Positions 3,640 to 39,260 of a DNA stretch of 64,000 nucleotides are shown here, piece by piece (position 1 is the first letter of the stretch; each line of letters opens with the position of its first letter). The position numbers were made by a program, and so were the translations under genes. The notes below the pieces were generated by a model, which saw only the letters and a list, made by a program, of their open reading frames with translations, ran no database searches and had not been told where the DNA came from. Source of the DNA: Bacillota bacterium (GTDB taxonomy: Bacteria; Bacillota; Sulfobacillia; JAMCWA01); NCBI GenBank assembly GCA_023475165.1, contig JAMCWA010000034.1, positions 31,081-95,080 of the forward strand, in the 5' to 3' direction.

Positions 3640-4003
3640 GAGACTGCTGACGAACTGCGTTTTGAGTGGTTAACCCGCCCGGGAAAAGCCGCCATAGTCT
3701 GTGACATTTCTATGGCGGCCGCACTCCTGGCGGCTTTAGCCAAAAGCCGCCATAGTCTGTACTGCGCTTGATCGCGATCGTACTTCTGGCGGCTTTAGCC
3801 CAATCGTAAGGGCGAGACCTCAAATCAGCCCAGATGCTAGGAGCGACCAGGCTCCGAGGCGAGGCATACTAGGTGGTACGTTGAGCGAGGAGCCGCCGGA
3901 GCGACAATCGGCAATAATAACGCCCCTTTAATAAACAGGTTCTTTCTGGCAGATTGCGCCACACCGCAGATGGGTGTTTTTCAGCGGTCTCCTAGGAGAC
4001 TGC
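3636..4003 (+). repeat. Modular intergenic repeat, full-length copy 1 (boxB ... boxA)
   Basis: Starts CTAGGAGACTGCTGACGAACTGCGTTTTGAGTGGTTAACCCGCCCG (boxB) and ends CCGCAGATGGGTGTTTTTCAGCGGTCTCCTAGG (boxA). The termini are imperfect inverted repeats (GGAGACyGCTGA). Internal tandem hairpin subunits (GCCGCCATAG...CTATGGCGGC and CTGGCGGCTTTAGCC, twice). Confidence 0.85.
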
Positions 4004-11119: not shown

Positions 11120-12282
11120 AGGACAACAATTGCGCCCAAGCAGATGGTGTCATTCAGCGGTCTCAAGGGGGTGGTTTTCTGCCCGAGTCAAGTATCGAAG
11201 GTAAGGAGAAAGGCCAAGGCGCCGCCCGCCACCGCCACCGAGGGCCCGAGCAAAGACGCGAGGAAGACCACGCCAGGGGCGGGCCGCTCCTGGTTCTGGC
11301 GGGTCCGACCGCTGTGGGAAAGACTGAACTGAGCATCCGCCTGGCCAAAGAGGTGGGAGGAGAGATCATTAACGCCGACTCCACCCTGGTATACCGCTTC
11401 CTCGATGTCGGTACGGCCAAACCAACCGTGGCGGAAAGGCAGGGTGTTCCGCACCACCTCATTGACATCCTTGACCCCAACCAACCCTTTAGCGTGGCCG
11501 AGTTCTGCGTCCTGGCGAGGCAAGTTATCGTCCAGGTACAAAGCCGGCGCCACTTGCCTATCCTCGTTGGTGGAACAGGGCTTTACTTAAAGGCGCTGGT
11601 AGAAGGGTATGAATTCGCCGAAACGCAGGCCGATATGGGTTTCCGGGACTACCTCCGCCGGTTAGCCCAGGCCCAAGGTCCGGTGGCACTCCACAGCCGC
11701 CTAACCCAGGTGGACCCGGGGAGAGCCGCCAGAATCCATCCCCACGACGTCAAACGGGTCATCCGGGCCCTCGAGATTCATCAGCAATTGCACAGCCCCA
11801 TGAGTCAAGTGGAGGCTGCGCGGGCACCAGGATACGAGGTTCTTTTCCTTGTCCTGACCAGGCCCCGGGAGACCCTCTACCGGCGCATCGATCAGCGGGT
11901 CCTGGGGCAGATTAGGGCGGGACTGGTAGAGGAAGTGGCTCTTCTCTTGTCGCGTGGTTACGACCCACAGCTCTTCCCCTTGCGGAGTCTGGGTTACAAG
12001 GAGATCATTGCCTATCTCAAGGGGCTCTGTAGCCTGGAAGAAGCCATTCGGCTCATCCAGCGCAATACCCGGCGATTGGCCAAACGGCAATTGACCTGGT
12101 TTAAGGGACAGAAGGGAATAACCTGGATTGAGGTCGGAGAAAATACTGAAGAAACTCTAGCAGCGATTACCAGACAGGTGGAAGAAAAGTGGGGCCCTCT
12201 GGAAAGAGGCCTAGCTCACCCCTCAAGCGATCAATTGCTCAGAAAAAAGACTGGCGAGGAAGAGGGATGTCTGGTAAAATAA
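11029..12282 (+). CDS. miaA: tRNA dimethylallyltransferase
   Basis: P-loop (GPTAVGKTELSIRLAKE) and conserved core. The only canonical in-frame starts (ATG 11029, TTG 11047) lie inside mutL and would add a roughly 85-aa low-complexity extension, and a repeat fragment sits at 11124-11167. The true start is probably downstream and non-canonical. Confidence 0.75.
   Translation: MSGSLSLPTWTPDFFKDNLSKTGAVLPAKIEDNNCAQADGVIQRSQGGGFLPESSIEGKEKGQGAARHRHRGPEQRREEDHARGGPLLVLAGPTAVGKTELSIRLAKEVGGEIINADSTLVYRFLDVGTAKPTVAERQGVPHHLIDILDPNQPFSVAEFCVLARQVIVQVQSRRHLPILVGGTGLYLKALVEGYEFAETQADMGFRDYLRRLAQAQGPVALHSRLTQVDPGRAARIHPHDVKRVIRALEIHQQLHSPMSQVEAARAPGYEVLFLVLTRPRETLYRRIDQRVLGQIRAGLVEEVALLLSRGYDPQLFPLRSLGYKEIIAYLKGLCSLEEAIRLIQRNTRRLAKRQLTWFKGQKGITWIEVGENTEETLAAITRQVEEKWGPLERGLAHPSSDQLLRKKTGEEEGCLVK
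11124..11167 (+). repeat. Repeat family, terminal fragment (copy 2)
   Basis: ACAATTGCGCCCAAGCAGATGGTGTCATTCAGCGGTCTC aligns to the boxA end. It lies inside the mutL 3' end and the miaA 5' region. Confidence 0.6.
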
Positions 12283-12579: not shown

Positions 12580-12813
12580 ATGACAAGCGGTCTTGCCTAT
12601 TACCCAGGCCAGGGAAGGCAGTTTTGCCTCTCATCAATTGATTTAGCTTTAGGAAGCGTAGCCAAGGGATGAGCCTGAGCCTGGTTTTCTATGGATTCTT
12701 GGTCTGGAAAGAGGGCCAAGATTTTTTCTTTTTCCGGCAGGATTTTTGTTGGCAGAGAACGAATACTTAGTTAAGAAACTTAATGAAGCCCAAACAGGCC
12801 CGCAAACTACTGG

Positions 12814-12916
12814 GGGACTGCTCGCAAACTGCGGTTTGCGCGGTCATCCCGCCCGGGATACCGTCAGGGCCAGAGCGCTCCAGAATGCCCAGAGGCTATG
12901 GAGGGCCGGTCTCCCG
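12814..12916 (+). repeat. Repeat family, copy 3
   Basis: GGGACTGCTCGCAAACTGCGGTTTGCGCGGTCATCCCGCCCGGGATACCG...GGCCGGTCTCCC, colinear with copy 12. Confidence 0.7.
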
Positions 12917-12950: not shown

Positions 12951-15503
12951 TTGGGAGAGGAGAGCAAGGCTTCTTTCCATAACCTGGCTTGGACCGTAAC
13001 CGAGGGAGCCATTTGGGCGGTTGGGCTTCTCTTTTCCCAACCCGGGGAGCAGGTGGTTCTTGCCCAATGTAACCGCTCCGGGGCTCTAGCAGGGCCACCG
13101 AACACTGTTAGACGGGGGGACATGTCACAAGGGGAAGGATCTCTCCAGAACAGCCCAGGCTCCCTGGACGAAGCTCGATTGGCCTGTGGAGGTTGGATCA
13201 ACGTTACCGAAAAACCGGGGGAATATTTCTCGCCGTCCGTCGTCAAAACGGCGGAGAGACTCCACGTCTTTTGGATCGGTCAAGAAGGCGAGGAATACCT
13301 GGTTTATGTTCGTGGGTATGCCACCCGCGAGGAGGCCGGAAGCGAAAGCGGCAGGCCCGTGTCCCTGGGGGCGGTTCACCAAGAAGAGGCTTATCCCTTG
13401 GACGAAGGCATCCCCATCTCTAAGACCAAAGAGAGGGCCTATAACCTGGCAACTTGCCCTGATCAGGGGGGAGGGGTCTGGGCCTTCTGGGAAGCCTGGT
13501 CAGGAGAAGGGGTATCGCTAAAGGGACGCCACTGGGAAAGGGAGACCGGGTGGTCCGAGACTTTCACCATTCCCACGGGTACGGCCCGGGCCTACTGGCC
13601 AACCCTGGTGGCTGCTGACGATCGCCTTTGGGTAGCCTGGATGTCACCCAACGATTCCGCCGACGGCTACGACATCATGCTAGCCTCTTACCAGGATGGG
13701 ACCTGGACCGCGCCCGTACGGGTCAATGAAACCCGAGGTTTTCACCTCTACCCATCCCTGGGACTGGATCAGGCCGGACGAGTCTGGGTTGCCTGGAGCC
13801 ACGACTCCCCAGAGGACTACTACGCTGACCTGACCAGCTCCGTTCCTTACCTGCAAACCCCCTGGGCTCGCCGCAAGCGCAACCTTTGGTTTAAGAAGTT
13901 TCGTGTCGCCCTGCGGGGGACTGATGGTTTCCGCTGGTGGGCCCTTGATTCCGCAGGAGCCGGAGAAGTTCCTGTTTTCGACCACGCCTTTTGGCCTGTT
14001 ATCAGTTTTGACCCCTGGGGTCGAGCAGTGTTGCTGGTCAGAGACTATGAAGCCAAAAGCCAACTCTTCCGCGTCCAGTTGGCCGTCGCAACAGCTAATG
14101 GTTGGCAGGTCGTACCAGTGGGCGGTGGCGGTTCTATCGTCCTCGCACCGGCGCGGGCCGCTTTTATGGGGGATCTTCTCCGTCTGGCCTGGGCCTCCAA
14201 TCCGGACGGCCTTGGGGAGGAGAGCCAGCCTGAATTTCAGGTCCTGCGGATTAGCGACTGGCCAGGTTCGGCCATGCGGCCTGAGGTTATCAGCGGGCAA
14301 CCCGCCAGGCCCAATAGCCAGCCGGTGCAAGAGCGCGCCAGAGAGCCAGAACGGTCAGACGATGAGGCCAACGATCCTCCCTTCTCGCGGGAAGGGGAAG
14401 GTTCAGGAGCGGGCGCCCCTTCTAGCCCGCTCTGGGGTCTTCCGGCCACTTCAAAACCGGGGGAAAGCTCGGCAGTCGCCTCTCGTACCCAGGTGGGTCC
14501 CTGGCGCGTCCTTTTCGGGAACATCCATATTCACACCGAGATTTCCAAGTGCCGGCGGCCCACGAGCCACTCCCTTGACCTGAATTACCGTTGGTGCATG
14601 GACTGTATGGGGCAGGAATTCGCCTCCCTAACAGACCATGCCGAGACCAAGACCGCCTACCAGTGGTGGCTTAACCGCAAAACTGCCCGCTTTTACAATA
14701 CCGACACCTTTGTTACCCTTTTGGGTTACGAATGGACCTTCAATCTGAGGGACCGCCAGGTGCGCCATCACGGGCATGTCAACGTCTATCTCCGTGGCGA
14801 AAGCGAGCAATACTGGGGAGCTAGGGCGGAAGGAAGCAACTCCCTGGAAAAGCTCTGGTCCCTCCTCCCAGCCGGCGAGGCCCTGGCGATTCCCCACCAC
14901 CCGGCGGCCTACCCTTTCCAACGCAATTGGGACTGGCACGATCCGGAACGGGAACCGGTGGTAGAGATCCACCAGGACCGGCGCGGCTCCTTCGAATACC
15001 GGGGTTGCCCCGGCGGGACGGTCCTTTCGGCAGAACAGCTCCTCGATGGCTGTTTCGTTCAGGATGCGCTGGCCAGAGGCCACCGCTTGGGCTTTGTCTC
15101 GGGGGGCGACCATCAAGGGCTTTCCCTAACGGCTGTTCTGGCGGCCGGTTGCAGCCGCGAGGACATCTTTGCGGCCCTGAAGCTACGGCGGTGCTATGCC
15201 ACCACTGGGGGGAGGATCCTTCTTTTCTTTGCGATTGAGGGTGCCCCCATGGGCGCTGAGGTACACTTGGGAGATCATGGCATTGAAGGTCTGGTTCAGG
15301 TGAGGGGGACGGATGTCTTGGAATCCGTGATCATTATCAAGAATAATCAGGACTGGCTGGTTAAGGATTTGAGGAATTTGAGCACATGGGAGGCCAGGGT
15401 ATCTTTTGCTGACGTCGAGGCCCGGCGAGGGGATTTCTATTACGTCCGAGTGGTACAAAGAGACGGAGAGCTGGCCTGGGGGAGTCCCATTTGGATTAAA
15501 TGA
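12951..15503 (+). CDS. Two-domain protein: N-terminal BNR/Asp-box beta-propeller plus C-terminal PHP-domain metal-dependent phosphoesterase (DUF3604-like), paralog 1
   Basis: TTG start with a GAGAGGAGGA SD. Asp-box (SYQDGTWTAP) and repeated W-rich blades, then a P/S-rich linker. The C-terminus has an HxH PHP motif (FGNIHIHTEIS), LTDHAE, HHP and a conserved tail (YYVRVVQRDGELAWGSPIWI). Confidence 0.6.
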   Translation: MGEESKASFHNLAWTVTEGAIWAVGLLFSQPGEQVVLAQCNRSGALAGPPNTVRRGDMSQGEGSLQNSPGSLDEARLACGGWINVTEKPGEYFSPSVVKTAERLHVFWIGQEGEEYLVYVRGYATREEAGSESGRPVSLGAVHQEEAYPLDEGIPISKTKERAYNLATCPDQGGGVWAFWEAWSGEGVSLKGRHWERETGWSETFTIPTGTARAYWPTLVAADDRLWVAWMSPNDSADGYDIMLASYQDGTWTAPVRVNETRGFHLYPSLGLDQAGRVWVAWSHDSPEDYYADLTSSVPYLQTPWARRKRNLWFKKFRVALRGTDGFRWWALDSAGAGEVPVFDHAFWPVISFDPWGRAVLLVRDYEAKSQLFRVQLAVATANGWQVVPVGGGGSIVLAPARAAFMGDLLRLAWASNPDGLGEESQPEFQVLRISDWPGSAMRPEVISGQPARPNSQPVQERAREPERSDDEANDPPFSREGEGSGAGAPSSPLWGLPATSKPGESSAVASRTQVGPWRVLFGNIHIHTEISKCRRPTSHSLDLNYRWCMDCMGQEFASLTDHAETKTAYQWWLNRKTARFYNTDTFVTLLGYEWTFNLRDRQVRHHGHVNVYLRGESEQYWGARAEGSNSLEKLWSLLPAGEALAIPHHPAAYPFQRNWDWHDPEREPVVEIHQDRRGSFEYRGCPGGTVLSAEQLLDGCFVQDALARGHRLGFVSGGDHQGLSLTAVLAAGCSREDIFAALKLRRCYATTGGRILLFFAIEGAPMGAEVHLGDHGIEGLVQVRGTDVLESVIIIKNNQDWLVKDLRNLSTWEARVSFADVEARRGDFYYVRVVQRDGELAWGSPIWIK

Positions 15504-15549
15504 CAGTTGGCATGAGACAGTCCAGCTTCTGCCAGCAGGAGGAGGAGAA

Positions 15550-17430
15550 AAAATGCGGGGAGAAGTAGCCGGGCGGGGTAACGGTACGGCCACCATTCAT
15601 CCTGATGTTCCGGTGCGTGTAAAGGCACGGGGTAGTTGGGTGATTACCTATACGGCTGGGGAAAGGGGGATCGAGGTTGGAGGAAGCGTCCGTTTGGAGA
15701 TCCCCAACGGTTTCAGTATGCCCCAACTCCACTATCCAGAACTGCCGGGTCACACCAGTGCCACCTGTTCTAACCCCAGGGTCAAGCTCCAACTGACCCT
15801 GGACTGGCCAGCGGGGCGTCGGGCGTATGTAACCCGTTGGGGGCGACACGTTTACATCAAGGTCCTGGATGAACGACTGGCCCCGGGCGAGACCATTACC
15901 ATTACTTATGGTAACGTCCACCGCTTTGCCTTTGTCGGGGCCGAAGCGCCGATCCTGGCCGATCTCGTGGAGTTCACCGTGGCGACGGACACCGATGGGC
16001 AGCGCCGGGCCCCCTTTAGCGGCTACTACCTGCTGCCGGAGTCACCTAGGCTTAGGATCATCAATGGATCGGCCAGGACCTTGCGCGTCCTGGTGCCTTC
16101 CCAGGCCGAGGTGGGTAAGCCGGTGGAGGTTTCCGTGGTGGCGGAAGATGAATCCGGCAATGTGGCCACTGACTTTCAGGGCGAGATCAGTTGGTCTTCC
16201 CCCGATGAGACGGCCATCCTCCCGCCAATGACCTCCTTCGTGGGGAACCAGCAGGGCATCCACCGGCCCGAAAAAGGTATCACCTTCCTTACCCCCGGGG
16301 AGAAACGGATTCGGGTGGAGGGGCCCAATGGACTGGTAGGCGAAAGTCCTCCGCTAGAGGTCGGGGATACGGCGCGAGAACTCAAGATCTACTGGGGCGA
16401 CCTGCACGGACATACCGCTCTTTCCGACGGCTTTGGGACTCCAGAAGATTACTACCAGTATGCGCGGGAAGTGGCCGGCCTTGACTTTGCGGCCATTTCC
16501 GATCATGCCCAGTATATGTCTGATGAGGACTGGGAGCACATCAAGGACGTCGGAAGGCGGTTTTACCAGCCCGGCCGCTTCGTCACCATCCTGGGTTACG
16601 AGTTCTCGCACAACCCGGTCAAGCCGCCTTACTACGGCGACAAGTGCGTCTACTACCCGGAGCTGGAGGGACCCCTTCTCCGCGAAACGGATATGTGGCA
16701 CGAAGAGTACGTCGACCTGCCCTCCCTCGGAGAGCAATTTAAGGCCCACGGGGCCTTAATGGTGATTCATGCCCACGCCCATGGGGTTACCAGCTACTAT
16801 GACCCGCACTTGACGCGGCTTTACGAGATTCACTCCATCTGGGGTTCTTCCGAATACCCCGGCAACCCGCGACCGGTACTTTCCTTTCACCGGCAGGACG
16901 CTTCCCAGGACTGTGCTCAAGCCGCTCTGGCCAAGGGTTTTCGGGTGGGTTTTACCGGCTCTTCCGACTGTCACATGGGGCGACCGGGCTACACCCGCTG
17001 GTTGGCAAGGGTCCCGGCCTATAGAAATGGTCTGGTGGCGGTGCTGGCTTCCGCCCTGACTAGAAAGGAGGTCTTCGGTGCGCTGTGGGATCGCCGGTGC
17101 TACGCAACCACAGGCGAGAAGATCCTCCTGGATTTCACCCTCGAGGGACATCAGATGGGCGAGGAGTTGACACTACCGCCGGGTCAGAAGAAGATCAGGG
17201 CACGGGTCAAGGTAACGGGAACGGGTGACCTGGGTCCCCTCACCATCGTCAAAAACGGCCGGGACTTCTACACTTACCAGGGTCTGGGGCCAACGGCGTC
17301 CTTTGAATGGGTGGATCAAGAGATTGGCGGACCATCTTACTATTACTTGCGGGTAACCCAAAAGGATGGTGCTACAGCCTGGTCCAGCCCGATCTGGGTT
17401 GATCAGTCTAGCTTTTCGCAAGATTGCTGA
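15550..17430 (+). CDS. PHP-domain metal-dependent phosphoesterase, DUF3604-like, paralog 2
   Basis: Internal ATG 15550 with a GGAGGAGGAG SD. PHP motif (WGDLHGHTALSDG) and C-terminal tail (YYYLRVTQKDGATAWSSPIWV). The N-terminus is a beta-sandwich-like domain. Confidence 0.6.
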   Translation, partial: KMRGEVAGRGNGTATIHPDVPVRVKARGSWVITYTAGERGIEVGGSVRLEIPNGFSMPQLHYPELPGHTSATCSNPRVKLQLTLDWPAGRRAYVTRWGRHVYIKVLDERLAPGETITITYGNVHRFAFVGAEAPILADLVEFTVATDTDGQRRAPFSGYYLLPESPRLRIINGSARTLRVLVPSQAEVGKPVEVSVVAEDESGNVATDFQGEISWSSPDETAILPPMTSFVGNQQGIHRPEKGITFLTPGEKRIRVEGPNGLVGESPPLEVGDTARELKIYWGDLHGHTALSDGFGTPEDYYQYAREVAGLDFAAISDHAQYMSDEDWEHIKDVGRRFYQPGRFVTILGYEFSHNPVKPPYYGDKCVYYPELEGPLLRETDMWHEEYVDLPSLGEQFKAHGALMVIHAHAHGVTSYYDPHLTRLYEIHSIWGSSEYPGNPRPVLSFHRQDASQDCAQAALAKGFRVGFTGSSDCHMGRPGYTRWLARVPAYRNGLVAVLASALTRKEVFGALWDRRCYATTGEKILLDFTLEGHQMGEELTLPPGQKKIRARVKVTGTGDLGPLTIVKNGRDFYTYQGLGPTASFEWVDQEIGGPSYYYLRVTQKDGATAWSSPIWVDQSSFSQDC

Positions 17431-17506
17431 TCGACTGCGGAAGGAGAGCTCTTGAGTAAGGCTTACCCTCAAGCAGACGATGAAACTAATTCCGACGGAG
17501 GCATCA

Positions 17507-18499
17507 ATGATGAAAGCAATGGAAACGTATCAAAGAAGGTACAGTCAGATCCCCCTCTTTGACCCCACGGCTGGTAAGGTGGTGGTGGGGCCGCCAGGGG
17601 AAGGGTCGGGCAACTGGGCCGGGGCACCCAGCGTGCTCTACGATCAGGGCGCAGGCAAGTTCTACCTTTATTACCGCCTGCGGCGTCCCCGTGGTCAGGG
17701 ACGCGGCTTTGCCTGCCGGGTGGCGGAGTCCACGGACGGCCTACACTTTCAGGACATCTGGGAGGCGCGCAAGGAAGAGCTGAACACCTCCTCCCTGGAA
17801 AGGGGCTGCCTTTATCAGGAGACGGATGGGTCCTGGCGCCTGTATTTGAGCTACGTGGATCCGGCCGACCAACGCTGGCGAGTGGACCTCCTGGAGGCGG
17901 CCTCTCCCAAGGAATTTGACCTTTCACAACGCCATCAGGTCCTCACCGCCGCCGCGTCTGGAGTCGAAGGGGTGAAAGATCCCTATGTCATCAAATTAGG
18001 CGGGCTCTACTATATGTTCTTGAGCTATGCTCCCTCTCCCCGCGAGGCGGATGAAAAGACCAGGAACGATATGCACGCTACCTCCGACGTCTTCAATACT
18101 GGAATAACCACCTCGGAAACCGGTCTGGCCCTCAGTGCCGACGGGAGAAACTTCCGCTGGGTAGGCGGGGTCCTGGCACCCGGTAAGGGCTGGGACCGTT
18201 TCACCGCCCGCATCACCTCGGTTCTCTATCAGCCTCCCATCTTTCACGTTTTTTACGACGGTTCAGCCTCGGTTCAGGATAACTATGAGGAGCAGGTGGG
18301 ACTGGCCATCAGCTTCGACCTGCAAAGCTTCCGCCGCGTGAGCGAGGATGCCCCCTTAGTAGTCTCACCCCATGCCTCGGGGTCCGTCAGGTACCTGGAC
18401 GTCATCGAAGTCAGTGGCCGGCTTTATTACTACTATGAATTTGCCCGTCCCGACGGCAGCCACGACCTGAGAGTCGAGGTGGTTAGACGTGAATCCTGA
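17507..18499 (+). CDS. Glycoside-hydrolase-like five-bladed beta-propeller protein (GH130/GH43-superfamily-like)
   Basis: ATG 17507 with a GGAGG SD. DP/W-rich blades (VKDPYVIKLGGLYYMF; FYDGSA). Family assignment is tentative. Confidence 0.45.
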   Translation: MMKAMETYQRRYSQIPLFDPTAGKVVVGPPGEGSGNWAGAPSVLYDQGAGKFYLYYRLRRPRGQGRGFACRVAESTDGLHFQDIWEARKEELNTSSLERGCLYQETDGSWRLYLSYVDPADQRWRVDLLEAASPKEFDLSQRHQVLTAAASGVEGVKDPYVIKLGGLYYMFLSYAPSPREADEKTRNDMHATSDVFNTGITTSETGLALSADGRNFRWVGGVLAPGKGWDRFTARITSVLYQPPIFHVFYDGSASVQDNYEEQVGLAISFDLQSFRRVSEDAPLVVSPHASGSVRYLDVIEVSGRLYYYYEFARPDGSHDLRVEVVRRES

Positions 18500-20186
18500 C
18501 TTATATAACCTCCGAGAAAAAACAGCCGTCGCCAGGCAGGAATGGGTTGAATCCACCCTGGCCAGACTCTCCTTGGAGGAAAAGATAGGGCAGCTTTTCA
18601 TGGTCACCTTTGCCGGGACCGAGATTTCTCCGGAACTGGTAAACTTCCTTCTTGGTCATCATATTGGTGGGGTGACCATTGGCGGCCGGAATATTACCAG
18701 TCCCGCTCAGATTGCCGCCCTGAACCTGGGACTGCAGTCAGCCTTCAAAAATGCCGGTGCCCCCCCGCTCCTCGTTTCTTTGACCCAGGAAGGGGGGATT
18801 GTCACCCGGTGGCACTATCCGGCCACCATCGTCCCTTCGGCCATGGCCATCGGGGCCACCGGCTCTTTGGAACTGGCCAAGGAGTGTGCCCGGGTGACCG
18901 CTCGGGAGTTGCGGGCGGCCGGTTTTAACCTCAACTTTGCCCCTACGGTAGACGTAAACAACAACCCGCTAAACCCCGTCATCGGTACCCGGTCTTACGG
19001 TGAAGTGCCGGAGCAAGTGGCCAGGTTCGCTGTAGCCGCCATCCTGGGACAGAGAGAGGTCGGCCTCGCCTCTTGTGCCAAGCACTTCCCCGGTCATGGG
19101 GATACCAGCGTCGATTCTCATCTTGGGCTGCCGGTGATACCCCATGGACTGGAACGGCTGGAAGAGGTGGAACTGGTCCCCTTCCGGGCGGCCATTGCCG
19201 CCGGGGTGGAGACGGTGATGACGGCCCACATCCTCTTCCCGGCTCTGGACGGCCAAAGGCCAGCCACCTTGTCCCGGGCTGTTCTGACGGGTCTGCTGCG
19301 CGAACGACTGGGTTTTGCCGGCCTGATCATCACCGATTCCATGACCATGGAGGCCATCGCCGCCAATTACGACCTGGGCGAGGCCGCTGTCCTGGCCCTG
19401 GAGGCCGGGGCGGACATCCTGCTCACCGGTGGAGACAGGAAAACCCAAGAAGAGATGTATCAGGCGGTCCTAAAAGGAGTGGAAAATGGCCGTTTGGGGA
19501 TCGATCAAATCGAAAAATCCCTGCGACGCATCCTGGGCTTGAAGTGGGACCTGGAAGTGGGGAAAGATCTGGGGCTTTATGCTGAGCAGTCCCAGCAATC
19601 TTCCGTGGGACACTCCGCCGCGCCGGTTGTTTCCTGGCCAGTGCCGGGGCATCTGGATGTGGCCCGAACAACGGCTCGCCGCTCCCTGACCCTGGTCCGC
19701 GATCGGGACGGCCTCGTACCTTTGCGGCTCACCCCCGGCCAGAAACTGGCTCTCATCGAGTTTCGCCTGGTTCGCTTTTCGTTGGTGGAAGAGTCCCGGC
19801 GAACCTCCCGTTATCTGAGCCAACTTTTCCAGAGCCGCTATCATGGCGTGACATCCCTTACTTTGGACCCTTCCCCTTCCCAAGGAGAGAAGAAAGCCGC
19901 CCGAGACCTGGCGGCGGCGGCCGACCTGGTGGTGGTGGCTACCCGTAACACCAATGCTTATGAGGAGCAGGCTCGTCTGGTCAGGGAACTTCTGGCTTTG
20001 GACAAGCCCGTGGTGGTGTTGGCTATCCGCAATCCCTATGATCTGGCCGCCATCCCGGAGGTGGGGAGTTACCTGATAACCTACGGCGACGCCCCTGTCT
20101 CTTTGGAGGCGGCGGTGGCTTGTCTTTTCGGCGATTTCGCACCTGTGGGGAGGTTACCGGTGACCTTGCCCGTCGGAATCGGCTAG
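18489..20186 (+). CDS. Glycoside hydrolase family 3 protein (NagZ-like beta-N-acetylhexosaminidase) with C-terminal domain
   Basis: Motifs EKIGQLFMV, AKHFPGHGDTSVDSHLGLPVIPH and TDSMTMEAI. GTG start overlaps the previous gene. The TAG stop is donated by repeat copy 4. Confidence 0.78.
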   Translation: MNPDLYNLREKTAVARQEWVESTLARLSLEEKIGQLFMVTFAGTEISPELVNFLLGHHIGGVTIGGRNITSPAQIAALNLGLQSAFKNAGAPPLLVSLTQEGGIVTRWHYPATIVPSAMAIGATGSLELAKECARVTARELRAAGFNLNFAPTVDVNNNPLNPVIGTRSYGEVPEQVARFAVAAILGQREVGLASCAKHFPGHGDTSVDSHLGLPVIPHGLERLEEVELVPFRAAIAAGVETVMTAHILFPALDGQRPATLSRAVLTGLLRERLGFAGLIITDSMTMEAIAANYDLGEAAVLALEAGADILLTGGDRKTQEEMYQAVLKGVENGRLGIDQIEKSLRRILGLKWDLEVGKDLGLYAEQSQQSSVGHSAAPVVSWPVPGHLDVARTTARRSLTLVRDRDGLVPLRLTPGQKLALIEFRLVRFSLVEESRRTSRYLSQLFQSRYHGVTSLTLDPSPSQGEKKAARDLAAAADLVVVATRNTNAYEEQARLVRELLALDKPVVVLAIRNPYDLAAIPEVGSYLITYGDAPVSLEAAVACLFGDFAPVGRLPVTLPVGIG

Positions 20187-20345
20187 GAGAGTGCCGACGA
20201 ACTGCGTTTTGAGTGGTGAACCCGGCCGAGCAAAGACGGCACAATCTATGAAAGGCTTGATAATGAACGCTCTTCTGGCGGCTTTAGCCCAATCGTTAGG
20301 GCGAGACCGCGGAAAAAGCCCCATCTTTGTGGCACAATCGCCAGG
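20184..20345 (+). repeat. Repeat family, copy 4
   Basis: CTAGGAGAGTGCCGACGAACTGCGTTTTGAGTGGTGAACCCGGCCGAG...CTGGCGGCTTTAGCCCAATCGTTAGGGCGAGACCGCGGAAAAAGCCCCATC. Its TAG is the GH3 stop codon. Confidence 0.8.
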
Positions 20346-20425
20346 AGAAGTTCTTCGAGGATCTGTCGCAAATTCTAACGATTATGGCGCAATAAGAGTA
20401 GCTTTTTGCGTGGGAGGGAAAAGCG

Positions 20426-22078
20426 GTGGGTGACTACGTCCTGGTGGAGGGATTTAACGAGATTTATGATGCCTCGACGGCTGTGGAGTTGAGCTCTCCT
20501 CTCAGTTCCTACACCTTAACCCTTAAGGCCTGGTTGATAAAACAAAAGAAAGGGCAAGCGGTGGCCTGGAACACGGCCAAAATCCCCGAAGAGGCCTTGG
20601 GGAAGCGAGTGATCCTGGTCTGGCCGATGGCCCTGGGAATGGGCTCACGGGTGCCCCAGCCCTCAGGGCAGTTTGATCTTTATTTGAACTCCGAGAAACT
20701 TCTTTCCTTTCGGCTGACCAAGAACCCGGAATTATGGGGCGGCAAAGAGGTCTCTTTCCTCTTCCAGGTCAAACGAGTGGCGCTGGAAGAGGAGCTGGCC
20801 AGCTACGGACTGGCCTTTCTCTCCTTGCCCTGGTCTAAGGTAGAGATCGGCACCAGGGCCACCATCACGGTACGACCCGCAGGTCCCGAGTCGGAACGCT
20901 GGTTCCGGATCGATAAACCCTTCGGTGGAGAGGCGACAAAGAGCAATTTCCTGGAGGACGGCCTGGCCCGCATCCTGGTGGGTAAAAGGGAGAGACACCG
21001 CCTGGGGCCATATCACCTCTTTTGGGGCGATCTTCACACCCATTCTGGCGGCCACACCGGTGCTGACGGCTGCGGCGATGGGAGCATCGACGAGAACTAC
21101 CTTTACGCCCGCGACGTTTCTAACCTGGACATTTACGCCCTGACGGATCACGACTGGCAGCTGACCTCGCCGGCCATGTGGCGGCAGCGACAGGAAAAGG
21201 CCTTCTCCTATTACGAGCGGGGAAACTTTGTCACTTTCAGCGCCTACGAGTGGAGTTGCCGCGGCGCTACCCGTCACTATGGCCACCGGAACATCTACTT
21301 TCTGGACGACGGCCAACCGTTCTTCTCGTACAAGGACGAGAACTCCGATACACCGGCCAAACTGTGGGCAGCCCTGGAGAAGACGGGAGCCGAGGCCCTT
21401 TCCATCGTCCACCATCCGTCCCTGGCCAGGATCGCTTATAACCAGAACTGGGAATACCACAACCCCAAGTTCGAACCTGTCGCCGAGATCTTCTCCGTCT
21501 GGGGAAGCTCAGAAAGCTTTGATAGCCCCGATCGTTCCACTTTCTCCGACCATGTCCCGGGAACCTTCTTGCTGGATGCCCTGCGGAGGGGATACCGTCT
21601 GGGGTTCATTGCCTCCAGCGATGGCCATGACGGCCACCCAGGGGGGGCCGAAGCTTGGACCGGCCTGGCTCTCCGCCCCAAACCGTACGGGAGCGGCTTG
21701 GTGGCGGTCTATGCGGAAGAACTAACCCGGGAGGCCGTTTTCGAAGCCCTGCGCCGGCGTCGCGTCTACGCCGTTACGGGGGCCAGGATCCAACTAGGTT
21801 TTTGGGTAGCTGGTCATTTCATGGGGGAAGAGACGCATATGAAAGCGGGAGTCAGGCCGGAAATCCGGATTTCGGTCGAAGGGATCTTTCCCCTCGAACT
21901 GATCGAGGTCGTCCGGGACGGTCACGTTATCGGGCGCTGGGGCTGGGGAGAAAAGAGGGCGGAAATCTTGCACGTCGACGAGACACCTCCACCCGGTCTG
22001 CATTTTTACTACCTCCGGGTTCGCCAAGGAGATGGGGAAATGGCCTGGTCCAGCCCGGTCTGGGTGGTGGTTTCATGA
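20426..22078 (+). CDS. PHP-domain metal-dependent phosphoesterase, DUF3604-like, paralog 3
   Basis: GTG start with a GGGAGGG SD. PHP motif (WGDLHTHSGGHTGADGCGDG) and tail (FYYLRVRQGDGEMAWSSPVWVV). Confidence 0.6.
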   Translation: MGDYVLVEGFNEIYDASTAVELSSPLSSYTLTLKAWLIKQKKGQAVAWNTAKIPEEALGKRVILVWPMALGMGSRVPQPSGQFDLYLNSEKLLSFRLTKNPELWGGKEVSFLFQVKRVALEEELASYGLAFLSLPWSKVEIGTRATITVRPAGPESERWFRIDKPFGGEATKSNFLEDGLARILVGKRERHRLGPYHLFWGDLHTHSGGHTGADGCGDGSIDENYLYARDVSNLDIYALTDHDWQLTSPAMWRQRQEKAFSYYERGNFVTFSAYEWSCRGATRHYGHRNIYFLDDGQPFFSYKDENSDTPAKLWAALEKTGAEALSIVHHPSLARIAYNQNWEYHNPKFEPVAEIFSVWGSSESFDSPDRSTFSDHVPGTFLLDALRRGYRLGFIASSDGHDGHPGGAEAWTGLALRPKPYGSGLVAVYAEELTREAVFEALRRRRVYAVTGARIQLGFWVAGHFMGEETHMKAGVRPEIRISVEGIFPLELIEVVRDGHVIGRWGWGEKRAEILHVDETPPPGLHFYYLRVRQGDGEMAWSSPVWVVVS

Positions 22079-22278
22079 TGTTTTTCCTGTCAGGCAGGAA
22101 CCTGATTGCCCACCGCGAAATATACTTTTGTCAGAAGTTGAATGACGCTGCCGTTTTTCAAGGAAACACCCTTGCCCCGCTCGGTACGCTGAGGCATAAG
22201 AAGGTCACAGACGACGGTTGATCGGCGGGGACTCCAGCGCCCACTTATGAAGTAAACCTACGGAAGGTAAGGAAAAGG

Positions 22279-23505
22279 ATGAAGAAACGACGTCTCCTGG
22301 CTACCGGAAAACCAGAGCTCTTGAAAAATATCAACGTCGGGCTGATCCTGGACATCATCAAGGGGCAAGGACCCATCTCGCGGGCGGAAATCGCCCGGGT
22401 TTCGGGGATTAGTCCTCCCACCGTCTCCCACCTGGTCAACCGCCTGGCGCAAGAGGGGGTGGTGGAAGAAATCGGCTTTGGCACTTCCATCGGCGGGCGG
22501 CGGCCAGTTCTGGTTCGCTTTAATCCAGCCGCCGCCTTTGTACTGGGTGTCGACGTCGGTGGCAGCCGCTGCTCCGCCGGCCTCACCGACCTGGCCGGTC
22601 GTATCCTGGCTAAAGAGGAGGTCCATTATCCACCCCGTGGCGGCGAGAGGTCGCTGATGATCATCGAGGACTTGATCCGCCACCTCCTGGAACAAGCCCC
22701 GGGTGGGAGGAAGAAGGTCAGGGGAATCGGCTTGGGGGTACCGGGTTTTGTCGATAGCCGACAGGGTCGGGTTTTGCTGGCGGCGGGCCTGCGATGGGAG
22801 AATATGGCACTGAAGGAACATTTGCAGAATTCCTTCGACCTGCCCGTCTTTCTCGACAACAATGTCCGGACCCTGCTCCGGGGGGAGAAGTGGTTTGGTC
22901 AGGCCCGGGGTAAGGAGAATGCCCTGTATATTCTCATTGGTCTGGGTATCGGGGCCGGAGTCATGATCGGAGGCGAGATTTACCCCGGGACGGATCAGGC
23001 GGCCGGCGAAATCCGCTATACCCTGCTGGATCGCCGTGCCCTACAATTGGCGCCGGAACCCGGCGGCTTTTTGGAGGGGAGGGTGGCGGCGGGCGGTGTG
23101 ACTGCCCGGGCGCGGGAAGGCTGGATGAGCACCGGGTCCTGGCCACCGTCACCAGTCCAAACGGCGGGAGAGCTCAAAGTCTCCGAGGTTTTCGCGGCGG
23201 CGGGGCAGGGGGATCCCTTAGCTAACAAGGTGACCCAGGAGATGGTGGACTACCTGGGAATGACGGTGGTGAACCTGGCCTGCCTGCTTAATCCGGAAGT
23301 GGTTATCTTTGGAGGTGAAGTACCGGAAGCGTACCCCGAACTGTTGGAAAGAGTAAGGGGTATAGTGTCTCGCTTTTGCCCATATCCACCGGCGCTGGTC
23401 GGTACGGAGTTACGGGAAGATGCCGGCATCCTGGGCTCAGTGGCCGGGATCCTGGCGCAGGAAAGAAGGACCTTGTCTTTCTTGGGCTATGATCTCCTGG
23501 CCTGA
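22279..23505 (+). CDS. ROK-family transcriptional regulator (NagC/XylR-like)
   Basis: N-terminal HTH (ISRAEIARVSGISPPTVSHLVNRL) followed by a ROK sugar-kinase-like fold. SD is AAGGAAAAGG. A rho-independent terminator lies downstream. Confidence 0.8.
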   Translation: MKKRRLLATGKPELLKNINVGLILDIIKGQGPISRAEIARVSGISPPTVSHLVNRLAQEGVVEEIGFGTSIGGRRPVLVRFNPAAAFVLGVDVGGSRCSAGLTDLAGRILAKEEVHYPPRGGERSLMIIEDLIRHLLEQAPGGRKKVRGIGLGVPGFVDSRQGRVLLAAGLRWENMALKEHLQNSFDLPVFLDNNVRTLLRGEKWFGQARGKENALYILIGLGIGAGVMIGGEIYPGTDQAAGEIRYTLLDRRALQLAPEPGGFLEGRVAAGGVTARAREGWMSTGSWPPSPVQTAGELKVSEVFAAAGQGDPLANKVTQEMVDYLGMTVVNLACLLNPEVVIFGGEVPEAYPELLERVRGIVSRFCPYPPALVGTELREDAGILGSVAGILAQERRTLSFLGYDLLA

Positions 23506-23657: not shown

Positions 23658-24626
23658 ATGGAGAAAAAGGAAGACGAGATGGGACGCCCGACCTCACTCG
23701 AGGAAGTATTTGATTGGCTGGGAGCTGGGAAGATCAGCTCCAGCGAGGCCTTTGGGCTTTTTCAGGAGGTGGAGAAAGGGGCTTTGGCAGAACCGGACAG
23801 AACCAATCAGAAGGGTTTGGAAGAGGCCATGAAGGAACTGGACAGCCTGATCGGTTTGACGGAGGTAAAGGAGCTGGTCAAGGAAATCCAGGCTTTTGTA
23901 GAGATTCAGAGGCGGCGGGCCAAAGAAAACCTGGTCAGTGAGCCCCTGGTCCTGCATATGATCTTTAAGGGAAATCCGGGTACAGGTAAGACCACCGTGG
24001 CCCGCATCCTCGGAAAGATCTTTCGGGAGATGGGGGTCCTGCAACGCGGCCACCTAGTGGAGGTGGAGCGGGCCGATCTGGTTGGGGAATACATAGGACA
24101 TACCGCCCAGAAAACCCGCGAGCAGATCAAGCGCGCTCTGGGGGGAATTCTCTTCATTGACGAGGCCTATGCCCTGGCCAGGGGCGGCGAAAAGGATTTC
24201 GGCAAGGAGGCCATTGATACCCTGGTCAAGTCCATGGAGGACCACCGTGACAATCTCATCTTGATCCTGGCCGGCTACCTGCAGGAGATGGAGACTTTTG
24301 TCCGCACCAACCCCGGGTTGCGTTCGCGCTTCCCGATTCATATCGATTTCCCGGACTATGATGTGCAGGAACTGCTGGAAATCGCCGAACTGCTGCTAAA
24401 GAAGCGCCAATACCGCTTCAGTCCAGAGGCCAGAGAGGTTTTGACCGCCAGTCTACTGCAAAAGACGGCATCTAAGGAGAGCCACTTCGGCAACGCCCGC
24501 CTGGTAAGAAACATCATTGAGAAGTCTCTTCGGCAGCAGGCGGTCCGCTTGGTCGGTCGTGACCGGCTCACCCGAGACGACCTCATGCTGATCACCCGTT
24601 CCGATATTTTGGGCGCCTTGGACTAG
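23658..24626 (+). CDS. spoVK: Stage V sporulation protein K-like AAA+ ATPase
   Basis: CbbX/SpoVK-type AAA with Walker A (GNPGTGKTTVARILGKIF) and Walker B (ILFIDEAY) motifs. ATG 23658 sits 8 nt from a GGAGGG SD. The TAG stop lies within repeat copy 5. Confidence 0.8.
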   Translation: MEKKEDEMGRPTSLEEVFDWLGAGKISSSEAFGLFQEVEKGALAEPDRTNQKGLEEAMKELDSLIGLTEVKELVKEIQAFVEIQRRRAKENLVSEPLVLHMIFKGNPGTGKTTVARILGKIFREMGVLQRGHLVEVERADLVGEYIGHTAQKTREQIKRALGGILFIDEAYALARGGEKDFGKEAIDTLVKSMEDHRDNLILILAGYLQEMETFVRTNPGLRSRFPIHIDFPDYDVQELLEIAELLLKKRQYRFSPEAREVLTASLLQKTASKESHFGNARLVRNIIEKSLRQQAVRLVGRDRLTRDDLMLITRSDILGALD

Positions 24627-24672
24627 GAGACTCCTCGGAAACCGCGGTTTGACTGGTTAACCGTAACCGGCC
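24624..24672 (+). repeat. Repeat family, degenerate boxB (copy 5)
   Basis: TAGGAGACTCCTCGGAAACCGCGGTTTGACTGGTTAACCG. Its TAG is the spoVK stop. Confidence 0.6.
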
Positions 24673-25294: not shown

Positions 25295-25910
25295 GGTCCT
25301 GGTCGACCTTCTAGCCATTGCCTTGGTGGGACTGGCGATCAAGTTCATGGACGACTGCCTTGACCAGGAACTGGACAGCGCCGCGGGGGCGCGAAATTGG
25401 GCCTGCTGGCTGGGCCGCGGCCTCGTCCCGTACGCCATGCTCTGCCTGGGTCTGGCGGCCGGAATGCGTCCGGCCTTGAGCGTTCCGCTTTTCCTGGCCG
25501 CCTATGCCCTGGGGATGGTCAACGCCCCCCTGACCCTGAATCCCTCTGGATTTCTGGCTGCCTGGGAATCACTGACGGTACTTCTCCTCGGGCTGGTCCT
25601 TTTTGGCTGGCGAGCCATTCTTTGGGCTTCATGTCTAATTCTGGCCATACAAATGGGTGACGACTTCTTGGACAGCCGGTCCAGCGAACCAGCGGAGTAC
25701 AAGGCGCAACGGGGCTGCTCAGAATCCGGGCCGGTAGGAGCATCCTTACCCTCAAGAGGGACCTCGCGTTGGCCTTCCTTGGATCAGGTGGAAAGGGCCC
25801 TGATCTTTCTGATTCTTCTCCTGGTGTCCTTACGACTTCACTTTCTCCCAAGCCTTTACGCCTTGTTGGCCGCGGCCTTCATTATGTTCCTGACGAGCAG
25901 GCTACCCTAG
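25275..25910 (+). CDS. Integral membrane protein (hypothetical)
   Basis: Multiple hydrophobic helices. TTG start with a GGAGGTG SD, overlapping the previous gene. The TAG stop is donated by repeat copy 6. Confidence 0.4.
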   Translation: MSVRISEVLVDLLAIALVGLAIKFMDDCLDQELDSAAGARNWACWLGRGLVPYAMLCLGLAAGMRPALSVPLFLAAYALGMVNAPLTLNPSGFLAAWESLTVLLLGLVLFGWRAILWASCLILAIQMGDDFLDSRSSEPAEYKAQRGCSESGPVGASLPSRGTSRWPSLDQVERALIFLILLLVSLRLHFLPSLYALLAAAFIMFLTSRLP

Positions 25911-25975
25911 GAGACTGCTGACGAACTGCGGTTTGAGTGGTCAACCCGCCCGAGAAAGTGGGTCGGCCGTGCGGA
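25906..25975 (+). repeat. Repeat family, boxB (copy 6)
   Basis: CCTAGGAGACTGCTGACGAACTGCGGTTTGAGTGGTCAACCCGCCCGAG. Its TAG is the stop of the membrane-protein gene. Confidence 0.8.
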
Positions 25976-27184: not shown

Positions 27185-27216
27185 ATGACATCAACATGAC
27201 CTGAACTTGACTTTCC

Positions 27217-27247
27217 CTTGATAAGCAGAACCGACGGATGGTATAAT
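27217..27247 (+). promoter_or_regulatory. Sigma-A-type promoter (TTGATA, 19 nt, TGgTATAAT) for the ynbB-like–glnA unit
   Basis: A -35 TTGATA at 27217-27222 and an extended -10 at 27239-27247. A 170-nt leader follows. Confidence 0.4.
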
Positions 27248-27265
27248 CAAGCCCAGGGAGGAGGT

Positions 27266-27318
27266 CTAAGGAGACCGCCGAAAAACCCCCATCGGTGTGG
27301 CGCAATCCGCCGAGGAAT
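27266..27318 (-). repeat. Repeat family, boxA-type end in the ynbB leader (copy 7)
   Basis: GGAGACCGCCGAAAAACCCCCATCGGTGTGGCGCAATCCGCC is the reverse complement of the boxA end plus the GTGTGGCGCAATC module. Confidence 0.65.
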
Positions 27319-27420: not shown

Positions 27421-28839
27421 ATGCTGGAAACCTTCAAGCTCCTGCCCCAAGGCTACCACCTGGACGATGGGCTGCTAAGTCTGGCCGCGGAGGTCCTTTC
27501 CGAGGTGAAAGGGGAGTGGGAGAAGAGGGATGAGATTACCGTCCAGAATCAAATGCGGGTTTTACGAAGCTTCCACCAAGTGGGAGTGTCAGCCACCCAC
27601 TTCTCGCCCGGCAACGGGTATGGTTATGGGGATCTCGGACGGGAGGGGATCGAGAGGGTTTTTGCCCGGGTCTTTGCCGCCGAGGCCGCCCTGGTACGCT
27701 GGCAAATGGTGTCCGGGTCCCACGCCCTGGCCACGGCCCTCTTTGGCCTGCTCCGGCCGGGGGATGAACTCCTCTCCGTTACTGGTACGCCCTATGATAC
27801 CCTGAGGGAGATTATCGGCTTTGGGCAGGCGGAGTCGACTCAGGAGAAGGTCTCACCCCCGCCGGAAGGGGAACCGAGTGCCGGGGAATGGCGGACTCAG
27901 CCGGACTTGACCGGGCAAGACCCCTCCCCACGGTCGGTCTCTCGCCCGGGGCCCCAAGACGGAGGACGCAGGCTTAATCCTGGTTCGCTGGCGGATTTCG
28001 GGGTGACCTACCGGCAAATCGCCCCGCGGATGGACGGGACCCTGGACGAGGCCGCCCTGCGGGAAGCTGTCAACCAGCGAACCCGGGTTGTCTTCCTTCA
28101 GCGGTCACGAGGCTACACCTGGACAGCCGCGAGGAATCTGGAGCAGATCAAGGACTACATCCAGAGAGTCAAGGCCATTAACCCAGGGGTTCTCTGTCTG
28201 GTAGATAATTGCTACGGGGAATTCGTGGAGACCCGTGAACCGACCCAGGTGGGAGCCGATCTGGTGGTGGGTTCCCTGATTAAGAACCCCGGAGGGGGCC
28301 TGGCCCCGACCGGCGGCTACCTGGCCGGGAGAGCCGATCTGGTTGAAGCAGCGGCAGCCCGACTCTACGCCCCGGGGTTGGGTAGCCACGTGGGTCCATC
28401 GCTGGGGGACAACCGGCTCTTCTTTCAGGGCCTTTTTCTGGCTCCCCATCTGGTAGGGGAGGCCATCAAAGGTGCCATTTTCACCGCTCGCCTCTTTGAG
28501 CGGCTCGGCTACGAGGTTTCCCCGCACTGGCAAGAGCAGCGGACCGATCTGATTCAGGCCTTGCGGCTGGGAAAGCGGGAGAGGTTGCTCTCCTTTTGCC
28601 AGGCCGTCCAGTCGGCCTCGCCCGTTGATGCCCATGTCCGGCCTGAGCCCTGGGCCATGCCGGGATACAGCGACGAGGTGATCATGGCGGCGGGAACCTT
28701 TGTTCAGGGAGCTTCCCTGGAGCTTTCTGCCGACGGTCCCCTGCGCGAGCCCTATATAGCTTACTTGCAGGGTGGACTGGTCAAGGAACAGGTAATACTG
28801 GCCGCTCTGCTGGCGGCCCAACGGTTGGGAGACCGCTGA
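27421..28839 (+). CDS. Methionine gamma-lyase-family PLP protein (YnbB / aluminium-resistance-like)
   Basis: Conserved with the YnbB-like family encoded upstream of glnA in Bacillus. It carries a roughly 50-aa P/S-rich insertion at about 27829-27985. The stop TGA lies within repeat copy 8. Confidence 0.72.
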
Positions 28840-28883
28840 AAAAACCCATCTGCTGTGTCGTAATTTCGGCGCAATCCGTCAGG
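28827..28883 (-). repeat. Repeat family, boxA-type end in the glnA leader (copy 8)
   Basis: GGGAGACCGCTGAAAAAACCCATCTGCTGTGTCGTAATTTCGGCGCAATCCG. It contains the ynbB-like stop TGA. Confidence 0.65.
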
Positions 28884-30244: not shown

Positions 30245-30330
30245 GAATCTGCCAGGCGGCGCGCCTGACGCCGTCTGAAAGAGTCAGGCTGGCGCAAAGT
30301 TGATCAGATCCTTCCAGCCCACCAGGCCCA

Positions 30331-30628
30331 GGAGACCGTTGAAAAACTTCCATCCGCGGTGTGGCGCAATCTGTAAAAAAGAACCTCTTTATTAAAGGGG
30401 CGTCACTATGGCAGATTGTCGCTCCGGCGGCTCCTCGCTCAACGTACCCCCAGTACGCCTCGCTTCGGAGCCTTGTCGCTCCTAGTATCTGGACTGGATT
30501 TGAGGTCTTGGCCTAACGATTGGGCTAAAGCCGCCTGAAGAACGTTTATTGTCAAGCCTTTTATAGATTATGCCGGCTTTGCTCGGGCGGGTCAACCACT
30601 CAAAACGCAGTTCGTCAGCTCTCTCCTG
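30331..30628 (-). repeat. Repeat family, full-length copy in inverted orientation (copy 9)
   Basis: Reverse complement is colinear with copy 1 across all modules (boxA ... module C GGAGCGACAAGGCTCCG... boxB ending CGCAGTTCGTCAGCTCTCTCC). Confidence 0.85.
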
Positions 30629-30799
30629 GGTCGGTGTCTTCTCCGCGACCGGCGCCCAGCGCACCGCGGCTCAGCTTCAGCCCGCCGGACGGCACCGCGC
30701 GGACTCTCCATCCCTGGAGAGCCTCGCTTCCCCGGGGGGCGGTGCCGGGCTCGATCGAAATCGGCTCATACGACATCGACCCAGGCCGGGCTGAAGTTT

Positions 30800-39250: not shown

Positions 39251-39260
39251 GGAATCGATT

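Follow-up and report, generated by a model that had tools for sequence, protein, structure and literature searches.

Ends of a Modular, Non-Coding Repeat Family Coincide with Gene Stop Codons in an Uncultured Bacterium of the Bacillota

Introduction

Why do the stop codons of several genes lie inside copies of one and the same repeat? The question is raised by a stretch of 64,000 nucleotides, hereafter the window, from an uncultured Bacillota lineage with 58% G+C (Sulfobacillia, JAMCWA01; positions 31,081 to 95,080 of contig JAMCWA010000034.1, GenBank assembly GCA_023475165.1). A preliminary description of the window, made from its letters and a list of its open reading frames (ORFs), noted that copies of a repeat supply the stop codons of at least five upstream genes. 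It took this as consistent with a preference of the element for stop codons or CTAG as targets, or with a function in termination or translational coupling. In structure the repeat is modular and non-coding; it resembles a miniature inverted-repeat transposable element (MITE) and constitutes a previously undescribed family. The overlap of its ends with stop codons is non-random and has left the lengths of the proteins nearly unchanged.

Stop Codons within the Repeat Ends

Reading of the sequence and of the ORF list bore out the initial observation: five genes end inside repeat ends, each at the position first given. Four of them, coding for a MerR-like protein, a GH3 enzyme, SpoVK and a membrane protein, end in the terminus CTAGGAGAC, and all four stops are the TAG of CTAGGAGA(C/G). 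TAG 3637-3639 terminates a gene with a MerR_1 match in Pfam and lies in a full composite copy on the plus strand (3636-3995), which consists of module A, two B hairpins, modules C, D and F and an inverted E, with CTAG on both sides; the gene is called here as ORF 3136-3639 and was first described as 3184-3639. TAG 20184-20186 ends a beta-N-acetylhexosaminidase-like GH3 gene (18489-20186; Pfam) in the plus-strand copy on which the preliminary description had centred (20183-20345; A, B and C followed by a direct E-like module). TAG 24624-24626 is the stop of a SpoVK-type AAA ATPase gene (Pfam) in a solo, diverged A module (24623-24666, plus strand), and TAG 25908-25910 that of a gene for a 211-residue membrane protein, with no Pfam match, in a solo A module (25907-25957, plus strand). 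The membrane-protein and MerR-like genes are real, since both have orthologues in a relative. The AGGAG that had been likened to a Shine-Dalgarno (SD) motif follows the TAG directly in every intact end.

The fifth stop, TGA 28837-28839, belongs to a Met_gamma_lyase/YnbB gene (Pfam). It is located inside GGAGACCGCTGAAAAAA, 9 nt inside a second type of terminus, GGAGACCGCTGAAAAA, and the solo E module to which it belongs (28825-28870, plus strand) provides the last four residues of YnbB together with the stop, TTG GGA GAC CGC TGA. The preliminary description was right in placing this TGA in a repeat terminus, but "boxA end" was the wrong label: the module is the second terminal module, E, which has only GGAGACYGCTGA (GAGACYGCTGA) in common with A.

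Of the 23 termini, 13 look toward a gene's 3′ end; five of these overlap the stop of that gene, and the other eight are 8, 37, 40, 52, 83, 85, 170 and 230 nt downstream of it. Several E ends abut gene starts, not stops. When termini are placed uniformly in the non-repeat spacer, 0.21 exact coincidences of TAG and stop are expected, and four were observed (Poisson-binomial P = 3.2e-5). The overlap at gene 3′ boundaries therefore goes beyond chance, although "consistently", the word used at first, overstated it. The frames are unevenly used, TAG serving four times, TGA once and the third frame never (P = 0.045 for at least four of five in one frame). Pure coincidence, in which repeats confined to short spacers merely happen to touch stops, is extremely improbable. 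Such spacers, with 25-30 nt of non-repeat DNA at three sites, do raise the chance of contact, but the expectation of 0.21 was obtained with those spacers, and the fifth overlap, in the TGA frame, comes in addition to the four.

TAG is an unusually common stop in the window, where it ends 18 of 51 called genes (14 of 47 when those with a repeat-borne TAG are set aside); in the relatives described below it ends 10 of 44. Two C-TAG stops, at 54023-54025 and 60609-60611, lie outside repeats. In the contig of the left flank, L093 (4325-4400), a DRTGG-domain gene ends AAA TAG GAG TTT GA; an F+E fragment comes next, with its inner side toward the gene. Here too a TAGGAG at a stop adjoins a repeat, but no terminus can be recognised.

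Architecture of the Repeat Family

Self-comparison, motif searches and nhmmer profiles revealed 17 repeat-bearing sites with 23 recognisable termini in the window. The copies measure 40-360 bp, have no ORF in common and fill 2226 of the approximately 8455 nt of intergenic DNA, that is, about 26%. A 35-nt probe of the A end gave eight matches in the window with at most three mismatches, where none is expected. Further repeat fragments are present in L093.

The A end, the first terminal module, reads CTAG GAGACTGCTGACGAACTGCGTTTTGAGTGGTTAACCCGCCCGAG, and the E end reads CTAG GAGACCGCTGAAAAACACCCATCTGCGGTGTGGCGCAATC. Between the ends are found B modules of one or two hairpins (AAAGCCGCCA...TGGCGGCTTT; z -3.8 in folding against shuffled sequences) and modules C and D, joined by F in the full composite 3636-3995. 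GAGACYGCTGA stands inverted at both ends of the copies 3636-3995, 30328-30629, 47430-47617, 51625-51726 and 54218-54567, forming terminal inverted repeats; many copies, by contrast, consist of a single end of 40-50 nt. For the copy 51625-51726, with A at both ends, folding gives a long hairpin (-51 kcal/mol, z -7.7 against shuffled sequences). The A end offers a stop in each frame within 38 nt: the TAG, a TGA in GACTGCTGA, and a TAA in GGTTAACC that is TGA or TAG in some copies. Seven of 10 A copies retain this third-frame stop, which comes about 35 nt into the module. Positions 30262-30300, between the glnA stop and element 30328-30629, may hold a strongly decayed E-like copy (GACGCCGTCTGAAAGAGTCAGGCTGGCGCAAAG), which suggests that older copies have eroded.

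Gene Ends in Relatives That Lack the Repeat

The window was matched to contigs of the uncultured "Firmicutes bacterium" metagenome-assembled genome GCA_023379645.1 and of Logan/ENA assemblies. Relatives found by protein search share 75-83% amino-acid identity, and their contigs L084, L086/L087 and L089/L090 are syntenic with 2.4-33, 13-23.5 and 31.6-51.9 kb of the window, at 66-80% nucleotide identity. Blastn, repeat search and nhmmer profiles detected no copy of any module in approximately 50 kb of these syntenic relatives; 80 distant loci of the Bacillota, examined with blastn and nhmmer profiles, gave none either, and an exact 22-mer of the repeat core had no match in the GTDB representatives, one genome per species. 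Two JGI metagenome matches to the core were discarded as chance, both lying inside a 67% G+C coding region. The same gene junctions are present in the relatives without the repeat. The lack of modules in syntenic relatives therefore identifies the family as a lineage-specific expansion with the behaviour of a mobile element. In other assemblies of the same organism (L085, L001 and L091) the repeats are identical, and differences fall elsewhere.

The MerR-like protein ends ...SRLFGP* in the window and ...SRLFGS* (TAA) in the relative, at the same codon; GH3 ends ...TLPVGIG* and ...TL-IGAD* (TGA), at the same codon after a one-codon indel upstream. SpoVK (...GALD*) is one residue shorter than its orthologue in L086 (...GALEG*, TGA) and equal in length to the 61%-identical protein of L002, which ends in TAG. 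The membrane protein (...RLP*) is three residues shorter than that of the relative (...RLPPAE*, TAG), and so is YnbB (...QRLGDR* against ...KELAPLEDQ*, TGA). More distant YnbB homologues extend 3-10 residues further; a locus search based on ynbB gave relatives of at most 52% identity, which were used for C-terminal length alone. Since the stops fall at the same codon in two genes and one to three codons earlier in three, the repeat sits on the natural end of each gene and has changed the last few residues at most. In the membrane gene, the alignment of window and relative resumes right after a 47-nt A module, and 13 nt of the relative's spacer are replaced.

The preliminary description had pointed out that the coincidence would be trivial if orthologues without the repeat ended at the same codon with the same stop already present. 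In the relatives the five genes do stop at that codon or very close to it, yet with TAA, TGA or a TAG preceded by A, never with C-TAG. The near-unchanged protein lengths support the extreme 3′ ends of genes as safe havens for selfish DNA.

Translational Coupling and Termination

The repeat might be a selected cassette, in which the stop and the AGGAG would hold or restart ribosomes, or which would act as an mRNA 3′ end or terminator. A precedent for coupling exists in MIRUs (mycobacterial interspersed repetitive units), and AGGAG stands directly behind the TAG in every intact end. Three other observations agree with a cassette: the A end points toward the upstream gene in eight of nine informative asymmetric copies (P = 0.02), the B hairpins are stable, and at the gene for DNA polymerase IV (PolIV, dinB) an E end gives the only SD-like sequence, a GAGG, 8 nt ahead of the ATG. 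The copy in question is a solo E module on the minus strand (39208-39252, end GTCTCCGAGG), and the ATG (39261) is preceded by GTCTCCGAGGAATCGATT (39245-39263), in which the GAGG is a mutated repeat flank, CTAG having become CGAG followed by G. The PolIV gene of the relative has AAGGAG and a TTG start.

Against a cassette, no start codon occurs 4-12 nt downstream of the AGGAG in the consensus, and the downstream genes begin 60-240 nt later, each with a Shine-Dalgarno sequence of its own. No reading frame is conserved: a MIRU-like ORF that overlaps the stop and start of its neighbours is found in a single copy (20191-20433), and the frames are closed in the others. Solo A modules fold no better than shuffled sequences (z 0.2 to -0.7), no terminator-like or promoter-like site was detected inside the repeats of the three repeat regions scanned, and Rfam gave no match to the repeat, its sole match in the window being a glycine riboswitch. 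Moreover, the relatives run the same junctions without the repeat, and 8 of the 13 gene-facing ends lie off the stop. These results speak against the role in coupling or termination suggested at the outset, and we consider a selected cassette quite improbable; the orientation bias of the A end and the GAGG at PolIV are the remaining hints of an interplay with expression.

The ORF 20191-20433 has 80 codons and begins with a GTG 4 nt past the GH3 stop; it crosses the repeat from side to side, and its terminal TGA overlaps the GTG at which the next gene starts (20426). The frame stays open solely through the loss of the third-frame TAA in that copy, and the ORF is thus probably a product of chance. 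In the leader of ynbB, a promoter-like pair, TTGATA-N18-TATAAT (27200-27270), stands just upstream of a solo E module (CTAAGGAGACC; 27266-27311, plus strand, 85 nt past the preceding stop), which on this account is probably transcribed as part of the 5′ untranslated region.

Insertion Sites and a Proposed Role of Selection

At 11 of the 23 termini, GAGAC is bordered on its outer side by the tetranucleotide CTAG, and at most others by a one-base variant (CCAG, CTGG, TTAG or CTCG); the flanks of the elements contain no direct repeat longer than the tetranucleotide. Where two ends abut, they share a single tetranucleotide. At 3987-4003 (GGTCTC-CTAG-GAGACTGC), the last part is the 8-nt start of another A-type end (3996-4003, plus strand), which shares CTAG 3992-3995 with the composite to its left. 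At 47425-47440 (GGTCTC-CCAG-GAGAG), a solo E module on the minus strand (47386-47433), adjoining the stop of gene 46343-47395, shares CCAG 47430-47433 with the next element (47430-47617, plus strand; A, C, D and an inverted E end). The end of ynbB, CTA (now TTG) GGA GAC CGC TGA, is compatible with insertion at a Leu-Ala CTA-GCN; the relative reads CTC GCG there. CTAG occurs 83 times in the window, 55 of them in coding sequence and nine in free intergenic DNA, which ruled out the notion of a motif too rare to be safe anywhere but at stop codons.

The termini 30328, 30629, 47430 and 51726 read CCAGG for CTAGG, from outside to inside, and two others read CTGG. A change of CTAGG to CCAGG is the direction taken by very-short-patch (Vsr/Dcm-type) repair in other bacteria; the CCWGG count in the window is near expectation.

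We propose a lineage-specific MITE-like element whose ends are put on stop codons by an insertion-site preference together with purifying selection, an explanation that we hold to be moderately probable. The element would have spread, presumably by transposition, through the short spacers of a compact genome, with a preference for CTAG- or TA-type sites such as those used by insertion sequences (ISs) of the IS630 type (TA within CTAG) and of the IS5 type (4-bp CTAG/YTAR duplication). Sites resembling its own end may also be preferred, a stop codon followed by GGAG being such a site. Insertions elsewhere in coding sequence would be lost, and those on or within the last few codons could persist, the reading frame being closed immediately by the repeat end. 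In frame 1 this would be done by TAG, with no residues added (four genes), in frame 2 by TGA 9 nt further (ynbB, LGDR), and in frame 3 of the A end by TAA, TGA or TAG about 35 nt in. Given such limits on where a selfish element lands and persists, the stop codons would be a by-product and not a device for coupling or termination. Thus, of the target preference put forward earlier, the part that fits best is a preference for CTAG or TA, or selection at extreme 3′ ends; a strict requirement for a pre-existing C-TAG stop fits poorly.

In the main rival explanation, CTAG is borne by the element and there is no target preference. Insertion would be nearly random around gene ends, and selection alone would sort the outcomes by frame, with TAG tolerated best (no residues added), TGA next (four) and the third frame worst (12). 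This would account for the A-end stops in all frames, with the third largely retained, for the 4:1:0 frame counts, and for window proteins that are equal to or one to three residues shorter than those of the relatives, never longer. It is also in line with the stops of the relatives, in which C precedes none of 10 TAG codons (and 1 of 12 TAA codons), as expected if C and TAG came with the element, and with the flanks of 30328-30629, inverted like part of an end. Less easily explained are the two abutting pairs, which have one tetranucleotide between them and not one each, and the fall of 5 of 13 insertions in 13% of the available sequence even with the last 18 nt of each gene counted as possible target (approximately P = 0.02, an estimate). 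Two stops exactly at the ancestral position, and three-frame stops within 38 nt that are only about a 1-in-20 event by chance, also count against an element-borne CTAG. We regard this explanation as possible but unlikely.

The overlap could also be mostly ancestral, if the genes already ended in a stop followed by GGAG and the ends in question were decayed remnants or ordinary stop-plus-SD junctions. The ends of the relative's membrane gene (TAGGAGGCC) and ynbB (CTGGAGGACCAATGA) each agree with the terminus in 10 of 15 letters, aligned in register to the window stop; the relative's sequences gaaTAGgaggccctcgacc at the end of the membrane gene and TGAAGGAGT at the end of GH3 belong to the same argument. 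A score of at least 10 of 15 is reached by 3 of 44 gene ends of the relatives, all with a window orthologue that faces a repeat end, and the relatives' ends at repeat-facing genes are on average more terminus-like (mean best match 9.0 against 8.0 of 15, P = 0.019) in a comparison made post hoc. Against ancestry, agreement with the family consensus up to the CTAG is 12/12 to 35/35 positions for the window ends, and the relatives' ends reach 8-10 of 15. The orthologous ends of SpoVK and MerR, at 8/15 and out of register, bear no real likeness to the terminus, the nhmmer profiles detect none of the modules in the relatives, and the resemblance signal is weak (P = 0.019-0.08). A mostly ancestral overlap is thus improbable; the post-hoc likeness nevertheless points to a looser target rule.

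Several points weigh against a site preference combined with selection. The statistics rest on five overlaps and 23 termini, a small sample, and the likeness of the relatives' gene ends to the terminus is a faint signal found after the fact. With a palindromic CTAG, a target-site duplication and a part of the inverted repeat are indistinguishable, and the flanks CCAG and CTGG of element 30328-30629 are inverted, not direct. Since C-preceded stops are few in the relatives, a strict pre-existing C-TAG target would need more such ancestral stops. As to a parent element, a Pfam scan of the 30 larger ORFs of the window gave no transposase domain, no autonomous IS with these ends was found in the window or approximately 12 kb of flanks, and a plasmid blast and a viral scan for the repeat were empty.

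No transposase accompanies the repeat fragments of L093. An IS21-like element beyond the right edge of the window (L088, 7800-12300) was rejected as the parent, its ends being unrelated to the repeat; it is a decayed remnant, interrupted by many frame breaks, in which IstB and fragments of IstA/Mu-transposase are left. Integron attC sites and gene cassettes were ruled out because the flanking genes are housekeeping genes (mutS, mutL, miaA, hfq, spoVK, glnA, lexA, dinB) in the same order as in relatives that lack the repeat. A reading as clustered regularly interspaced short palindromic repeats (CRISPR) was rejected on gene context.

A more specialised element, adapted to operon junctions and choosing sites that mimic its own end (stop + GGAG), is conceivable but doubtful. 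It would turn a three-frame stop on the A end to the upstream gene, and would keep or form an SD-like GAGG/GGAGG at the E end that faces downstream. If so, it would wedge itself between translated genes without polar damage, an inverted-repeat element making a harmless insertion of the MIRU kind, and both the orientation bias and the terminus-like gene ends before insertion would be explained.

Comparison with Known Repeats

The supply of stop codons by repeats is already known from BOX: in Streptococcus pneumoniae ATCC 700669, BOX copies cover the extreme 3′ end of 36 genes and provide their stops, with no clear truncation when compared to orthologues (PMC3049150). Stop-supplying repeats reveal no new mechanism, and what is new here is the repeat family. 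BOX (boxA-boxB(n)-boxC) is its closest counterpart in architecture and behaviour. Both are modular, with end modules and variable internal hairpins, and both are non-coding and MITE-like, with many intergenic copies that are often truncated. The likeness stops there: no sequence relationship was seen, Rfam being the only library searched, the host is another one, the ends are CTAG-flanked GAGACYGCTGA, and the fraction of intergenic DNA occupied in the window is far higher.

Two families of insertion sequences offer models for the flanks. MITEPsy1 of Pseudomonas syringae, an IS5-family MITE of approximately 100 nt with inverted ends, inserts at CTAG or YTAA with duplication of the site, and its inverted repeat is GGAAGGTCTGAAAAAGCC (PMC3189936); by eye, this resembles the E end GGAGACCGCTGAAAAAC, the common part being GGA...CTGAAAAA. 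Both the flanks and this end are compatible with an IS5-type origin, but no IS5-type parent or transposase was found in the window or its flanks. IS630 prefers TA within CTAG, according to the reference to Tenzen and Ohtsubo (1991) given in PMC2170065. The TA insertion and duplication of IS630/Tc1-mariner elements and their MITEs fits C-TA-[GGAGAC...GTCTCC]-TA-G and the TTAG/CTAG flanks of 54218-54567, but no IS630-type transposase was found, and the CCAG/CTGG flanks would need extra mutations.

Other repeats share the preference for harmless positions. In Coxiella burnetii, QMITE1 and QMITE2 touch functional genes only at the 3′ end; the overlaps measure 1-50 bp, and the size of the proteins changes little (PMC5896051). 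Sequences and hosts are different, and those overlaps vary in length, whereas four of the present ones have a single terminal TAG in common. MIRUs are found at operon junctions, where they overlap the stop and start codons of their neighbours, so that insertion is harmless (PMC12548453). Their short ORF is coupled to the start of the downstream gene; the present family has no conserved ORF, and downstream starts are 60-240 nt away. The present family, a very dense one, joins the short list of small mobile repeats of bacteria that rewrite the last codons or stop codons of housekeeping genes.

Other Copies and Neighbouring Loci

A solo E module on the minus strand (11122-11168) separates the mutL stop (11119) from miaA, and a plus-strand copy at 12810-12900, 230 nt past the hfq stop, consists of a diverged A end (CTGGGGGAC) and the start of C/D. 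The full element 30328-30629 lies inverted on the minus strand, E left and A right, between the convergent genes glnA and lexA. On the other side of PolIV, a plus-strand copy (40474-40625) that joins A, B and C to a direct E-like module has its CTAG 8 nt past the stop, and a degenerate A end on the minus strand (TTAGGGGAC; 42410-42464) lies 37 nt past the stop of the minus-strand gene 42501-42872. A diverged plus-strand element with the A end TCAAGGGAC (48285-48421) follows the histidine-phosphatase stop at 40 nt. The 100-bp element with two inverted A ends (51625-51726, plus strand) lies 52 nt past the helicase stop. The full element 54218-54567 (minus strand) has E on the left with a TTAG flank and A on the right with a CTAG flank, an orientation opposite to that of most copies, and a solo E module (56548-56593, minus strand) lies downstream of gene 54913-56490.

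For annotation, the family implies that gene ends are partly repeat-encoded, that assemblies break at repeats and that start and stop calls nearby need care. The right CTAG of element 47430-47617 is directly followed by the GGAGG of the histidine-phosphatase gene (47618-47700). Between an in-frame TGA (47623-25) and the RHG motif this gene has no ATG, GTG or TTG; a CTG (47632), 9 nt after the GGAGG, aligns with the ATG of the relative. The gene has either a CTG start or a damaged one.

The GH3 gene is part of an 11-kb sugar-utilisation block (12951-23505, from hfq to spoVK) that contains three DUF3604 genes and GH43-like, GH3 and ROK genes. In the relative L086 (9084-10001), only a rubrerythrin gene stands in place of this block. 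In the relative L084, an ATP-binding cassette (ABC) transporter, with a binding protein and two permeases, is encoded between GH3 and the third DUF3604 gene, and the window is without it exactly at repeat 20183-20345. The glycine riboswitch detected with Rfam is an aptamer at 57312-57411 (RF00504, 53 bits).

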